NCBI GenBank assembly: GCA_049322915.1
Contig: JBMOPW010000034.1
Location: 224,001 to 288,000 of the forward strand
Direction of reading: 5' to 3'
Source of the DNA: Candidatus Zhuqueibacterota bacterium
GTDB lineage: Bacteria > Zhuqueibacterota > Zhuqueibacteria > Thermofontimicrobiales > Thermofontimicrobiaceae
DNA: 64,000 nt
Of the stretch, positions 26,284 through 30,686 are shown one piece after another. The position numbers and the translations under genes were made by a program. The notes beneath the pieces are model-generated. The model was not told the origin of the DNA and ran no database searches. It saw nothing but the letters and a program-made list of their open reading frames with translations. Numbering within the stretch: position 1 is the stretch's first letter; every line of letters begins with the position of its first letter.

Positions 26284-26582
26284 CTCTTTCGTTTTGAGCC
26301 TGGTGTATTTATTTTTCCTTCGACTTGCAGCCAGCGATTCGCTGATTACCAATGCCAGCGCACATGTGACATTATTTCACTGCCCGGCATGCGCATTGCC
26401 CATTCTCCAATTGCCCGGCTGCACAAACTGACAGCAGAATGTCCCTGCAAAACTAATGAATCTAGTTAACTTTTGCAAGGTAAATTTATTTTTTTTGAAT
26501 CCGATATGAATCTTTTCAATGGTACTGACATCTAAATACGTAAATTCAATTTTATCCCATTCACTTTTTTAACAAAGGCGCT

Positions 26583-26789
26583 ATGAGCAAATATATCTGG
26601 AAAATAGCAGTCGTTCTGGTTGGAGCTGGATTAGGTTATGCCTATTACCATTTCATCGGCTGCCGTTCCGGCGTTTGTCCCATTACCAGCAATCCCTGGA
26701 TCAGTACCGGCTACGGTTCACTGATTGGACTGATCTTTGCGTCAGGCACAAAAAAGAGTCAGCCAAAAAAGGAACAGGAGAAACAATAA
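26583..26789 (+). CDS. DUF6132-family small membrane protein
   Basis: G.AYY.FIGCRSGVCPITSNP...YG signature. Confidence 0.8.
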   Translation: MSKYIWKIAVVLVGAGLGYAYYHFIGCRSGVCPITSNPWISTGYGSLIGLIFASGTKKSQPKKEQEKQ

Positions 26790-26948
26790 ATGGATTCATT
26801 GACTCCTATCATTATCTTTGTAGTGTACTTTTTAGTCATGCGGTTCGTTCTCCCCAAAATGGGAATTCCTACCTGAATGTCGAAATCGTGCGACCTTCCG
26901 GGAGAACGTCGAAAAGATGAAAACAAAAAAGAAACGAGTGACATTTAA
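26790..26948 (+). CDS. Putative 52-aa single-TM selenoprotein (TGA at 26874 read as Sec)
   Basis: MDSLTPIIIFVVYFLVMRFVLPKMGIPT-U-MSKSCDLPGERRKDENKKETSDI; RBS AGGAG; ATG abuts the previous stop; hairpin follows the TGA. Confidence 0.6.
26891..26911 (+). other. Candidate bacterial SECIS hairpin
   Basis: CGAC-C-TTC-[CGGGA]-GAA-C-GTCG; loop 22 nt after TGA, G at loop position 2. Confidence 0.45.
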
Positions 26949-26961
26949 GTGGAGATCAGCG

Positions 26962-27171
26962 ATGCCGATTTATGAGTATAGTTGCAAAAATTGTGGTTGT
27001 CAATTCGATGTGTTCCAGTCCATGGGCGCCACGAACGAAAATTTAACTTGTCCATCCTGCGGACAGCCAAAACCGGAGCGAATTTTCTCCACATTTGGTT
27101 CGGCCGGATCAGGTTCGTATTCCGGCAGCTCCGGCGGATGCAGTTCCAGTGGACCATTTACCTGAGGTTAA
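26962..27171 (+). CDS. FmdB-family zinc-ribbon protein, probably with C-terminal Sec (...CSSSGPFT-U-G-stop)
   Basis: MPIYEYSCKNC...CPSCG; TGA 27163 followed by GGT TAA; RBS GGAG. The confidence refers to the FmdB call; Sec is less certain. Confidence 0.8.
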
Positions 27172-27172
27172 A

Positions 27173-27195
27173 TAAAAAAGCAGTTAGCTTTTTTA
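27173..27195 (+). other. Candidate bacterial SECIS hairpin
   Basis: TAAAAAAGC-[AGTTA]-GCTTTTTTA; loop 16 nt after TGA, contains GU. Confidence 0.5.
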
Positions 27196-27229
27196 GACAT
27201 GAAGTAACCAAAATAATTCTGGAGGAGAA

Positions 27230-27829
27230 ATGAAAAAAATTAGTTATACAATGATACTTATCATAGTTATGTTGCTGGCCGGATGTTCCGGAGAAACAGA
27301 CGAGTCCATCGCTCAGAATAAAGTGCAAAAAGTTGATAAGGTGAATGTCGAGAACGTCGCTTCGAAAAATTTTGTGCTCACTTTTAACCAGGGTTTGGAG
27401 AAAGCGAAAAAAGAGAAGAAGAACATGCTCATCGACTTTTACACGGATTGGTGCCATTGGTGCAAAGTGATGGATGAGAAAACTTTCAGCGAAAAAGCAG
27501 TGGCTGAAAAACTGAGCAATCGGTTTGTCACGGTTCGAATCGATGCGGAGGCCAATACAGGGTCTAATTCATTTAAAGGACATACATTCAATAATATGGA
27601 AATGACGCGGGCGTTTGGGGTCACAGGATTCCCATCACTCATCTTCATCTCCCCTGAAGAAGAAGTCATCACGAAAATCCCGGGCTATGTCCCGGCTGAG
27701 CAGTTCGCCTACATCCTCGATTATATCGATCAGGAATGTTACAAAAAGCAGATGAGCCTTGAAGAGTTCATGAAGAAAAAGGGCGAATGCGACGACACAA
27801 CTGAGAAGCCCAAGTCGGACAATATGTAA
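27230..27829 (+). CDS. Thioredoxin-family (SoxW-like) lipoprotein
   Basis: Lipobox LAGC, WCHWC active site, GFP cis-Pro. Confidence 0.9.
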   Translation: MKKISYTMILIIVMLLAGCSGETDESIAQNKVQKVDKVNVENVASKNFVLTFNQGLEKAKKEKKNMLIDFYTDWCHWCKVMDEKTFSEKAVAEKLSNRFVTVRIDAEANTGSNSFKGHTFNNMEMTRAFGVTGFPSLIFISPEEEVITKIPGYVPAEQFAYILDYIDQECYKKQMSLEEFMKKKGECDDTTEKPKSDNM

Positions 27830-27891
27830 TTCAATGTCCGAATTCAATCCGGACAATTCGCGGCTGACGAATCAGTGACCATAATGATTGC

Positions 27892-27925
27892 AGGGACTCC
27901 ACCGAATAGGTGAGTCCCTTTTTTT
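27892..27925 (+). terminator. Rho-independent terminator
   Basis: AGGGACT...AGTCCCT followed by a T-run. Confidence 0.8.
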
Positions 27926-28328
27926 ATCTGTGAAAAATCAGTGCGCTGAATTGCTCCGGCTCAGCGCTCGCAAAACCGCCCATTGATGGAGATGGGTTCA
28001 CGCGAAGAAAATCAATTCTGTTTTTATCTGACATCGCTGCCTCAGAAAAACTCCCCTGCTGACCCTGTTTTTGCCGCCTTTTATGTTCTTCCTTGCTTCC
28101 GGCAAAAAAAAATCTTGCTTCATGAGAAATAATTTGTAAATTAATGCTGTGACTATTCAGGCTTTTATTCTTGCCTCAAAGGCGCCAGGTCACAGAGTTA
28201 TAAGAAGTTTCCAACTTTTTATTCAATCTTTTAATCCAATAGCGCCGGGAATTGAGTTGTGGTGGCCGACACGATTTCACCAGGAATAACTTCAATAAAA
28301 GTTGACAAATAAATATAGGACATGAAAT

Positions 28329-30686
28329 ATGAATGCAAAACCCAGATTCATTTTTGACTCTGACGTCGAAAACAAAGCGATTGAAAAATCTGAACACGAG
28401 GCAATTTATCCCCCTACTGAAAAAATTCCTGTCATCATGGTGCCAAACTTTCCCACGTTAGGAAAGCTAGCTGCCATTCGCTTTTTAGAGTGGGTCCAAA
28501 AAAATCCCGGCGGGGTCATTTCCCTGCCGACGGGAAAAACGCCGGAGCATTTCATCAAGTGGGTCAGATACTACCTCAAGAATTGGGACAAAGAAGCGGT
28601 AAAAAAGGACCTTGAGTCATGGGGAATAAAAACAGAAACCCTGCCGGATATGAAAAGCCTTCACTTTGTCCAGATCGACGAATTCTACCCGATCAATCCG
28701 CAGCAACACAATAGCTTTTACCACTACATCAACAAATTTTACATCAAGGGATTCGGCCTCGATCGGTCCAAGTCCCTGCTCATCGATTGCTATAAAGTTG
28801 GTGTGCCCCAGGGCATGGCCATTGAGAAAATTTTTCCGGAGCAGAAAGTCAATCTGGAATTGCGGACGAGGCAGCCGAATTCAACGCTGGAACGGATACA
28901 AAAGACTGTCATCGAGCAGGTCGACCATTATTGCACCGAGTACGAAACTCAAATTCGTAACAGAGGCGGCATCGGATTTTTCCTGGGTGGCATTGGCCCG
29001 GACGGCCACATTGGTTTCAACGTCAGGGGGTCGGATCTCTATTCGACGACCCGACTCACGCCCACCAATTATGAGACCCAGGCTGCTGCCGCGACCGACA
29101 TGGGCGGCATCGAGATTGCCAGAAATCGGCTGGTCATCACCATTGGACTGAACACCATCACGTTCAACAAAAATGCCGTGGCAATCATCATTGCTGCTGG
29201 CGAAACTAAAGCGCCCATTGTCGCCGACGCGATCGAACAAGAGAAAAACAATCAGTACCCGGCCTCTGCGCTGCGCGAGTTGCCTCACGCCCGTTTCTAC
29301 CTGACACGGGGCGCTGCGAAAAATCTGGTGGAACGCCGTTATCACGAATTGCTCCGACAGGAGAACATGTCCGAGCAGGACATGATGCGGATTGTCACCA
29401 ACCTCTCGATGATCAATTCTGTTCGGCTCAAAGATTTAACCCAGGAGCATTTCAAGCAGAATAAATTCGGCGCGTTGATTTTGCAAAAGACAAAGATGAA
29501 GATGGCGGCCATCACTCAATTCGCTGAAGATCAAATCAAGCGTAAAATACAGGATGGCCTGGATCCCGTGTCTGGCCAGGTGTTCATGCATACTGCCCCG
29601 CATCACGATGATGAGATGTTAGGATTCTGGCCGTACATGGTGCATCTGGTTCGTGATCCTCAGAACACGCATTACTTCAATTATATGACGAGCGGCTTCA
29701 ACGCGGTGACCAACAAGTATGTCCTTGATTTGTTGCTCAATCTCCGGCAGCACATTTCAACGCCTCGCTTTGAACAGTTGCTTCGCGAAAATTATTTTGA
29801 CCCGGAAAGCATGGAGGGCAAGAACGGGGACGTGCATCATTACCTGGATGGCATTGCCGCGCACAGCCGCTCCATGCGCCAGGAGGCGGAGAGCAAGCGG
29901 CTTCTCCGCAATCTCATTTTCCTGTTTGAGGAGGACAGCCCGGTTCATCTCAAAGACCGCATCGCTGAAATGATCAGCTATTTCAAAACTCAGTACCCGG
30001 GCAAAAAGGATCTTCATTACATTCAGCAACTCAAAGGGATGATCCGCGAATGGGAAGCCGACCTGGTCTGGGCCTATCTTGGGTTCAGCGTGGAATTCAT
30101 CAATCACCTCCGGCTGGGTTTTTATAAAGGCGACATTTTTACAGAAGAGCCTGATTTACAACGGGATGTTCAACCTGTCCTGGAACTGATGGAGCGGATT
30201 AAACCCACCGTCATCACCGTCGCATTCGATCCGGAGGGCAGCGGGCCGGATACGCATTACAAAGTGATGCAGTCAATCAGCGAAGCGCTGAAACTTTACG
30301 AGAAAAAACACAGCCCCCTCAACATTGAAATTTGGGGCTATCGGAATGTCTGGCATCGATTCCATCCGGTCGAAGCCACCACCTACGTCCCGGTGTCCAT
30401 CAATTCATTCGCCAGCCTGGACCAGGCATTCATGAACTGCTTTGGCTCGCAGCGCTCCGCCTCATTTCCCAGCTACGAATTCGACGGACCATTTTCGCGA
30501 TTGGCTCAGCAAATCATGGTGAGCCAATATCAGAAGGTCATCAACTGTCTGGGACAGGATTATTTCTTTCACAACGACCACCCGCGGCTCAGGGCTGCGC
30601 ATGGCTTCAACTTTCTCAGGAAGATGACGCTCAATGAATTCTACCAGAGCTCCCTGGAATTGAAAAAGAGCACTGAGAACATATAA
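28329..30686 (+). CDS. nagB: Glucosamine-6-phosphate deaminase fused to a PIG-L/LmbE-like domain
   Basis: LPTGKTP, IDEFY, GGIGPDGHIGFN; C-terminal APHHDDE and PDTH. Confidence 0.88.
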   Translation: MNAKPRFIFDSDVENKAIEKSEHEAIYPPTEKIPVIMVPNFPTLGKLAAIRFLEWVQKNPGGVISLPTGKTPEHFIKWVRYYLKNWDKEAVKKDLESWGIKTETLPDMKSLHFVQIDEFYPINPQQHNSFYHYINKFYIKGFGLDRSKSLLIDCYKVGVPQGMAIEKIFPEQKVNLELRTRQPNSTLERIQKTVIEQVDHYCTEYETQIRNRGGIGFFLGGIGPDGHIGFNVRGSDLYSTTRLTPTNYETQAAAATDMGGIEIARNRLVITIGLNTITFNKNAVAIIIAAGETKAPIVADAIEQEKNNQYPASALRELPHARFYLTRGAAKNLVERRYHELLRQENMSEQDMMRIVTNLSMINSVRLKDLTQEHFKQNKFGALILQKTKMKMAAITQFAEDQIKRKIQDGLDPVSGQVFMHTAPHHDDEMLGFWPYMVHLVRDPQNTHYFNYMTSGFNAVTNKYVLDLLLNLRQHISTPRFEQLLRENYFDPESMEGKNGDVHHYLDGIAAHSRSMRQEAESKRLLRNLIFLFEEDSPVHLKDRIAEMISYFKTQYPGKKDLHYIQQLKGMIREWEADLVWAYLGFSVEFINHLRLGFYKGDIFTEEPDLQRDVQPVLELMERIKPTVITVAFDPEGSGPDTHYKVMQSISEALKLYEKKHSPLNIEIWGYRNVWHRFHPVEATTYVPVSINSFASLDQAFMNCFGSQRSASFPSYEFDGPFSRLAQQIMVSQYQKVINCLGQDYFFHNDHPRLRAAHGFNFLRKMTLNEFYQSSLELKKSTENI

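Follow-up and report, generated by a model that had tools for sequence, protein, structure and literature searches.

Two candidate selenoprotein genes, encoding a membrane microprotein and an FmdB-family zinc-ribbon protein, in one operon of a Zhuqueibacterota bacterium

Organization of the operon

The DNA analyzed here, referred to as the window, is a stretch of 64,000 nucleotides from the genome of Candidatus Zhuqueibacterota bacterium (assembly GCA_049322915.1, contig JBMOPW010000034.1, positions 224,001 to 288,000 of the forward strand), and the subject of this report is an operon of four genes within it that encode, in order, a DUF6132 membrane protein, a microprotein with one hydrophobic helix, a zinc-ribbon protein of the FmdB family and a thioredoxin-fold lipoprotein (gene 4) (Table 1). 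Each of the two middle genes contains an in-frame TGA. We consider it likely, as the best overall explanation of the locus, that these are two selenoprotein genes in which UGA is read as selenocysteine (Sec, written U in peptides) and we tentatively suggest that their products form a membrane-anchored redox pair.

Table 1. Features of the operon, in window coordinates; aa, amino acids; SECIS, selenocysteine insertion sequence
Feature	Position	Strand	Evidence
DUF6132 two-helix membrane protein, 68 aa, C27-x4-C32 between the helices (CRSGVC)	26583-26789	+	Pfam PF19628, E 1.1e-10
Microprotein gene, 52 codons + TAA; one hydrophobic helix, GIPT-U29-MSKS-C34, charged tail	26790-26948	+	Read-through translation
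UGA read as Sec (candidate), U29 of the microprotein	26874-26876	+	Cys at the aligned position in G126 and in homologues of other phyla
SECIS-like hairpin of the microprotein gene; stem 19-25/31-37 counted from the U of UGA, loop CGGGA	26892-26910	+	
FmdB-family zinc-ribbon gene, 69 codons + TAA	26962-27171	+	TIGR02605, E 1.8e-17; PF09723, E 2.7e-15
UGA read as Sec (candidate), U68, penultimate residue of the FmdB protein; then GGT TAA	27163-27165	+	
SECIS-like hairpin of the FmdB gene, loop AGUUA, wholly 3' of the true stop codon	27173-27195	+	
Thioredoxin-fold lipoprotein, 199 aa, lipobox LAGC, WCHWC, DsbD-gamma-like	27230-27829	+	PF13098, E 2.2e-19; PF03190; PF13899
Intrinsic terminator closing the operon; hairpin 27892-27919 + U-run	27892-27926	+	-18.3 kcal/mol, z -5.07, then U7

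The four genes are separated by gaps of 0, 13 and 58 nt. In the microprotein gene, 28 codons precede the TGA and 23 further codons lead to the TAA at 26946-26948, and the read-through product is 52 aa long. The hairpin of the terminator escaped a simple pattern scan and was found by folding, and a scan of positions 26500-28000 against Rfam (E<=10) gave nothing relevant, the sole match being a chance snoRNA. An earlier note on this DNA, made from the sequence alone, had described four packed + strand genes closing at a terminator, an in-frame TGA followed by a short extension and a hairpin in both middle genes (with the loops 22 and 16 nt past the TGAs), a CxxxxC motif in the DUF6132 gene and a WCHWC motif in the thioredoxin-fold gene, and all of these features were confirmed at their coordinates.

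Selenocysteine machinery of the genome

The genes for Sec synthesis and insertion (selA, selB, selC and selD) were all identified in the source assembly, which is 96% complete. The tRNA-Sec scored 63 bits, above the gathering score of 47, and was also called by ARAGORN, as tRNA-SeC with the anticodon TCA. Its gene (G000:C34:304657-304751, - strand) is on the same contig as the operon, ~17 kb past the end of the window. The selA and selB genes are adjacent, and at 561.6 and 364.6 bits, respectively, both are well above the curated cut-offs. There are two selD genes, one of which (G000:C2:57472-58398, - strand; 374 bits to TIGR00476) contains an in-frame TGA, and its product is therefore probably a Sec-containing selenophosphate synthetase. 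A genome-wide reassignment of TGA was ruled out, because TGA ends 17 of the 36 long open reading frames (ORFs) in the window. Both middle genes of the operon would be decoded by the standard bacterial route, in which a hairpin 10-20 nt downstream recruits SelB and Sec-tRNA(Sec) to the UGA.

The microprotein family

Matches to the read-through peptide that contain an in-frame TGA were found in 47 of the 61 sampled genomes of the class (E<1e-3). A profile made from 45 microprotein sequences was then run on 167 genomes of the phylum (the tallies for the microprotein and for selB include genomes G159 and G163, on which no specific claim depends) and gave matches in 100 of them, with TGA at the position of interest in 98, TGC in one (G126) and TAA in one (G015). 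The 47 extracted loci share the motif LP[KR][LM]G[VI][PSNH]T-U-[ML][SAG]xxC, in which P22, G25 and U29 never vary and at least 90% of the 45 sequences retain L21, T28 and C34. The last of these residues lies five residues past the TGA, and the conserved motif spans both sides of that codon. A near-identical contig from an independent run retains the TGA and differs in the preceding codon by a synonymous change (ACC>ACG). A search for RNA runs containing the locus listed none.

Consistent with Sec at this position, full-length homologues exist that have Cys exactly where the TGA stands (LPxLGVPT-C-MSGAC). These were identified at 12 loci and as ~20 unnamed database proteins of ~63 aa, and the metagenome-assembled genomes (MAGs) that carry them are labelled Myxococcales/Deltaproteobacteria, Bryobacteraceae, Chloroflexota, Cyanobacteriota, Planctomycetales and related, Bacteroidota, and Desulfobacteraceae. 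The Sec form is present in the same protein database solely as 29-aa stubs ending in ...GVPT. The sole Cys (TGC) form within the class is that of G126 (L107, G126:C5:1376573-1379716), which has no adjoining FmdB gene, in a genome that has selB. Fused or longer forms of the microprotein were not found among 8000 candidates, which is weak evidence of their absence.

A hairpin after the TGA is conserved in the family. When 51 nt from the TGA onward were aligned for the 47 loci (alignment A1), 44 aligned without gaps around a common hairpin at positions 19-26/30-37 with the loop GGN; the other three (L073, L077 and L083) needed gaps, and in these, as well as in L082 and L084, the hairpin begins a few bases earlier. 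Overall, 79.5% of the cells of the structure are paired and compensatory changes occur in all eight pairs. There are 63 double-change cells, compared to 25.0 +/- 3.8 in shuffled alignments, none of 500 of which reached 63, and the covariation score of 0.437 exceeds both that of the shuffles (0.204) and those obtained when the pairing partner was slid (0.06-0.16). The stem overlaps the codons of a variable part of the peptide, and coding constraint could add some signal, but the way in which pairs switch among CG, GC and UA is typical of an RNA helix. The covariation thus supports a conserved structure.

Several observations weigh against the Sec reading of the microprotein TGA. The window's own hairpin is indistinguishable from chance (z +0.19, with 107 of 200 shuffles folding as well), and since that of the FmdB gene, described below, is modest, the case for the hairpins must come from the relatives. 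The related genomes are not independent samples, and as such the counts given above overstate the support. In addition, selB (E<=1e-60) was identified in 89 of the 98 TGA-bearing genomes, as tallied by reading two tables, and the nine without it are 70-96% complete. Finally, one relative, G015, has a TAA at the Sec position. The TAA and the unremarkable hairpin favor an alternative in which both TGAs of the operon are ordinary stop codons, the 28-codon ORF is a short peptide or no gene at all, and the similarity downstream and the hairpins have another cause, for example a regulatory leader that senses selenium supply through its translation. This would also suit the gene callers, which stop there and have left 29-aa and 67-aa entries in the databases. 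It is contradicted by the conservation of the peptide past the microprotein TGA, by the Cys homologues, by the covariation of the hairpin and by the near-uniform use of TGA (98 of 100) where mixed stops would be expected. Even in G015 (L086, G015:C54) the frame past the TAA is still open and still reads M-x4-C-x-V-P, so that the TAA looks as it would after a recent single-base change. Comparison has already largely refuted this alternative, which we regard as very improbable, and the microprotein TGA is very probably read as Sec.

In G015 the FmdB gene with a Sec-type tail is on another contig (L116, G015:C153), and its tail (...SSSSGDGGRFT-U-AS) is without the Cys that is invariant elsewhere. 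In this genome the module may be in decay.

The FmdB gene and its C-terminal tail

The third gene of the operon is a member of the FmdB family, scoring 63.2 bits to TIGR02605 (cut-off 31.3) and 56.5 bits to PF09723 (cut-off 34.4). An upstream ATG (26917-26961) would yield an 82-aa protein overlapping the end of the microprotein gene; position 26962 is the likely start because all 36 orthologues begin MPIYEY (three of them with GTG). The protein consists of a CxxC...CxxC ribbon, a Gly/Ser-rich linker and the tail C60-SSSGPFT-U68-G69. The four ribbon residues C8, C11, C30 and C33 are invariant in an alignment of the family (A4) and all four are Cys codons in the window, and C60, F66 and U68 of the tail are likewise invariant.

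At 36 of the 47 loci the microprotein gene is followed, within 69-214 nt and in the same orientation, by an FmdB gene. All 36 orthologues have TGA as their first stop, with G-[GPS]-F-[TSG] directly before it and an invariant Cys 7-8 residues upstream. After it come G or A, sometimes one more residue and then, one to two codons on, a second stop, which is mixed (13 TAA, 10 TAG and 13 TGA). Of 593 database relatives the best 120 were inspected; 115 of these stop precisely at F[TSG], and four of the remaining five end in GST. One locus, L055, has an FmdB gene with a different, Cys-rich tail. A second FmdB paralogue, found in the source genome and in relatives (L108, G000:C10:125495-125707, and L109-L114), has a Cys/His-rich tail such as SCGSCAGGHCSTCH in place of C-x7-U-G.

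The true stop is one to two codons past the UGA, and the SECIS-like hairpin of this gene therefore lies wholly in the spacer that follows. It is present at all 36 loci, with loops that bear G/U, and its start lies between +6 and +21 nt relative to the U of UGA, in most cases between +12 and +18. In an alignment of the 36 sequences made with MAFFT (A2), the seven-pair helix has 75.5% of its cells paired and 55 double-change cells, versus 22.7 +/- 4.2 in shuffles (0 of 500 reaching the observed number), and a covariation score of 0.484, versus 0.221 in shuffles and 0.13-0.29 when slid. The window's own hairpin is modest (-7.8 kcal/mol, z -2.72).

The evidence for this gene is of a different kind than that for the microprotein. 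None of the best 120 of the 593 database relatives has Cys at the Sec position, and since no Cys-for-Sec homologue was found, the argument is built on the invariance of the TGA, the variation of the second stop and the covariation of the hairpin; because the extension is only one to two residues long, conservation past the TGA cannot be judged. An alternative is that the microprotein alone is a selenoprotein, that the TGA of the FmdB gene is its true stop and that the hairpin is a terminator, an attenuator or an mRNA-stability element. The short extension and the want of a Cys homologue are in keeping with this, TGA is the commonest stop among the long ORFs of the window, and the window hairpin, flanked by an A-run and a U-run, could also be a weak terminator. 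The U-run, however, is absent in most relatives, while the hairpin itself covaries and keeps its distance from the TGA and its G/U-bearing loop. A true stop would also not account for the contrast between an invariant first stop and a mixed second one: 36 TGAs in 36 genes at a frequency of 0.47 would have a probability of ~1e-12 on the assumption of independence, which does not hold for these genes. The uniform G or A after the TGA, with the second stop never more than two codons away, points in the same direction. Based on these observations we regard a true stop at this position as improbable, and the TGA of the FmdB gene is probably read as Sec.

The earlier note had read both TGAs as candidate Sec codons, each followed by a hairpin, in genes that standard gene callers truncate or miss, and had proposed to look for Sec machinery in the genome, for conservation past the TGAs, for Cys/TGA alternation and for synteny in relatives. 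That interpretation is supported by the machinery, by synteny and by the covariation of both hairpins. Conservation downstream and Cys/TGA alternation held for the microprotein, with Cys forms in other phyla and in G126; for the FmdB gene no Cys form was found among the best 120 of 593 database relatives. The note had named homologues with TAA or TAG at these positions and no conservation downstream as speaking against its reading; for the microprotein the TAA of G015 was the one such stop, and there the frame downstream is still open. The expected truncation is evident in the 29-aa stubs and in the FmdB entries that end at F[TSG]. The function that the note suggested, a thiol/selenol or metal-handling system associated with the membrane, is tentative.

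Gene order in relatives and neighboring genes

The constant core of the operon is the microprotein and FmdB genes, and the other two genes are not constant partners: a DUF6132 gene was found on the same strand within ~2 kb of the microprotein gene in 25 of the 47 loci, and a thioredoxin gene, identified by its DWCHWCK motif, in 14. Synteny in relatives is thus conserved for the core, and the flanking genes vary widely outside the family of the source genome. This variation, and the observation that no FmdB gene stands beside the Cys-form microprotein genes, count against the overall explanation favored here. Recurring neighbors of the core are thiol oxidoreductases, including a protein disulfide oxidoreductase, and a DsbD-gamma-like lipoprotein gene is near the microprotein gene in the family of the source genome and in the next. 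The nearest solved chains for gene 4 are 2kuc and the C-terminal domains of DsbD, and its product has the fold, the CxxC and the export signal of periplasmic thioredoxin-fold oxidoreductases (DsbD-gamma / DsbH-like). At two loci (L070:2420-3823 and L071:2504-3871) the gene for a flavoprotein resembling CoA-disulfide reductase directly follows the Sec-type FmdB gene and precedes DUF6132; the scores to TIGR03385 (345-373 bits) are below its cut-off of 579.

Some additional arrangements were observed. In L096 (L096:3166-4287), from a MAG labelled Deltaproteobacteria, a DUF6132 gene and a Cys-form microprotein gene are followed by a gene for a protein with a DsbD/CcdA-type membrane domain, the start of which overlaps the microprotein stop. 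In L117 (G014:C75:52600-53300), DUF6132, the Sec-type FmdB gene and a thioredoxin gene are in the usual order, and no microprotein gene was detected by motif or by profile in the ~190-nt space between DUF6132 and FmdB. The operon in the window is flanked by a divergent URO-D-like gene (PF01208; 25246-26352, - strand) and by a 785-aa ORF (28329-30686, + strand). These look unrelated to the operon because they differ from relative to relative.

Proposed function

With its acidic N-terminus, single helix and tail rich in K and R, the microprotein is by the positive-inside rule probably oriented N-out/C-in, which would place U-x4-C, located directly behind the helix, at the cytoplasmic face of the membrane. 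The FmdB protein would be cytoplasmic, there being no export signal in its sequence, the C-x4-C of DUF6132 should lie between its two helices on the outer side, and the lipoprotein signal (LAGC) of gene 4 suggests a periplasmic product. We tentatively favor a mechanism, inferred as to its topology, partnership and chemistry and doubtful in its details, in which the Sec/Cys pair of the microprotein would, by analogy with the CP-x4-CR pair of BCP/PrxQ, cycle between a selenol/thiol and a selenenylsulfide state and would be re-reduced by the mobile Cys...Sec tail of the zinc-ribbon protein, in the manner of the GCUG tail of thioredoxin reductase. The two proteins would thus constitute a membrane-anchored selenol/thiol exchange pair, able to couple to other thiol oxidoreductases. 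Their genes make up a conserved module to which DUF6132 is often attached, as is, in the family of the source genome, the gene of the DsbD-gamma-like lipoprotein.

The comparison with BCP/PrxQ derives from profile alignments. With hhalign, VLPKLGVPT-U-MSxA-C of the microprotein fell on the active site FYPKDNTPG-C-TKEA-C of the organism's own peroxiredoxins, with U29 on the peroxidatic and C34 on the resolving Cys, a weak match over 26 columns with E 0.0032 and a probability of 9.9%; the Cys forms gave E 0.017 and 2.7%. The PrxQ model NF053650 was matched by 7 of the 45 members, with E-values from 0.0032, and the four listed at E<=0.05 covered profile positions 23-52 with 13.7-17.5 bits, against a cut-off of 260. 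Weighing against the analogy are these same probabilities, which are below significance, and the size of the microprotein, since 52 aa cannot hold a peroxiredoxin fold. Prediction of a complex of DUF6132 with the microprotein, using natural Cys forms (A7 and A6), gave a score of 0.00, which weighs neither way.

The same two selenoproteins might alternatively serve in metal handling, their Sec/Cys pairs ligating a soft metal or metalloid (Hg, Cu(I), As or Se) that would be passed across the membrane from the periplasmic thioredoxin-fold lipoprotein to DUF6132, to the microprotein and on to the zinc-ribbon tail. Such a relay would resemble the Mer system, with MerP, MerT/MerF and the C-terminal Cys pair of MerA. 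In keeping with this, two small membrane proteins that bear such pairs (C-x4-C in DUF6132, U-x4-C in the microprotein) adjoin a cytoplasmic protein with a flexible, chalcogen-rich tail, and the tails of the FmdB paralogues in the same genomes are metal-site-like. Several transporter-linked selenoproteins are implicated in metal resistance in the portion of a 2026 review consulted (PMC13188914). Conversely, a scan of 143 neighboring ORFs identified no metal-resistance gene (merA, arsenic genes, P-type ATPase or metal regulator), none of the four proteins matched a Mer or heavy-metal family in the Pfam and NCBIfam scans, and the recurrent neighbors are thiol-disulfide oxidoreductases. We rate a metal relay, the main rival of the redox pair, as rather unlikely.

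Returning to the redox pair, a more far-reaching version, which we consider unlikely in its entirety, is that of a minimal selenoenzyme system, not described before, in which a membrane peptide of ~50 residues with a Sec/Cys pair would act at the membrane surface as a peroxidase or as a disulfide/persulfide exchanger without a thioredoxin fold, would be recycled by a dedicated carrier with a Cys...Sec arm and would plug into different reductases or periplasmic thioredoxins depending on the lineage.

Implications

If the Sec reading is true, the catalogues that we checked lack two selenoprotein groups, one of which gene callers fail to see. The microprotein is in databases solely as stubs, and the FmdB form ends 2-3 residues too early in 115 of the best 120 database entries, which as a consequence lose a residue that is probably reactive. 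The pair would be a constant feature of one bacterial class, with 98 TGA-bearing microprotein genes among the 167 phylum genomes. The FmdB gene would also be a naturally occurring example of a bacterial SECIS that lies past the stop codon; the text available of the 2026 review (PMC13188914) places bacterial SECIS elements within coding regions. FmdB proteins are widespread and of unknown function, and a Sec-tipped tail with a Sec/Cys membrane partner gives rise to a redox hypothesis that can be tested.

Comparison with known families

The microprotein family and the tail form of FmdB were not found in Pfam, in NCBIfam or in the tables of two reviews, a coverage that excludes Haft and Tolstoy 2025 and the BSepDB table, either of which could list them. 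With their TGAs read as Sec, both are bacterial selenoproteins decoded in the standard way, and the new point is the pairing of the two genes. In Pfam and NCBIfam release 20, the window microprotein, 45 Sec forms and 26 Cys forms gave scattered weak matches alone, and in the ESM Atlas the Cys form of L096 came closest to a cluster of 123 members that has no name beyond 'hypothetical protein', with a value of 0.88 that falls below the bar of 0.9.

Selenoproteins of the FmdB family have been reported before. They were predicted from Global Ocean Sampling (GOS) reads, as far as the accessible text of that study goes (Zhang and Gladyshev 2008, PMC2398784), and FmdB is listed as a selenoprotein family in the sections seen of two reviews (PMC9312934, PMC13188914). 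The GOS proteins, as described there, share with the window protein the TIGR02605 / PF09723 ribbon and the insertion of Sec via a bacterial SECIS. In those proteins Sec replaces a ribbon Cys (CxxU, and UxxU in the 2026 table, PMC13188914, as excerpted), whereas in the window protein the ribbon is all Cys, Sec is penultimate or antepenultimate in the tail (C-x7-U-G/A-x) and the SECIS follows the stop. A GOS-type assignment was rejected, as the four ribbon positions are Cys codons and Sec is residue 68 of 69. No description of a C-terminal Sec form of FmdB was found in the portions of the literature that our search returned. Literature searches on DUF6132 and on zinc-ribbon selenoproteins with a SECIS brought up nothing related.

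A near-terminal Sec is also characteristic of the UXX-star and KCU-star families of NCBIfam (NF041114, NF041211 and NF033934), named in the part of the table in PMC13188914 that was consulted. They resemble the FmdB form in that Sec is 0-2 residues from the C-terminus, so that their SECIS must lie outside the coding region, and in that gene callers cut off a few residues. Their domains, that of NF041211 being glutaredoxin-like, are unrelated to FmdB, and none of the three families is among the matches of the FmdB protein at E<=1. NF041211 and NF041197 were rejected as families that could include the FmdB form, because neither matches the locus; NF041211 matches elsewhere in the genome.

With respect to chemistry, the tail may be compared to the C-terminal Sec arms of thioredoxin reductase (GCUG) and of eukaryotic SelS and SelK, which shuttle electrons as a selenenylsulfide. 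The FmdB tail resembles such an arm in being flexible and Gly-rich with an upstream Cys and a near-terminal Sec followed by Gly; unlike those arms, it is borne by an unrelated protein, on a zinc ribbon of 45 residues, and its Cys and Sec are 7-8 residues apart and not adjacent.

The microprotein shares with BCP/PrxQ (FYPKDxTPGC-TxxA-C) a hydrophobic stretch and the pattern PK-x3-P-x-[C/U]-x3-A-C with identical spacing. It differs in having ~50 residues and a membrane helix in place of a thioredoxin fold of ~150 residues, in a shifted catalytic Thr and in the absence of the distal Arg, and membership was rejected because the resemblance is just the local alignment of 26 columns (probability 9.9%). 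It is similar to DUF6132 in being a small membrane protein with a [C/U]-x-S-G-x-C motif directly after a helix, and the genes adjoin in 25 of the 47 loci, but it has one helix and not two. A relationship to DUF6132 (PF19628) was likewise rejected, there being no match for the window protein or for 26 Cys forms and an hhalign probability of 0.9% over 10 columns. The operon as a whole is reminiscent of a DsbD/CcdA relay, in that it combines a periplasmic DsbD-gamma-like domain, small Cys-containing membrane proteins and a putative cytoplasmic redox partner; it differs from that relay in having no DsbD/CcdA membrane domain.

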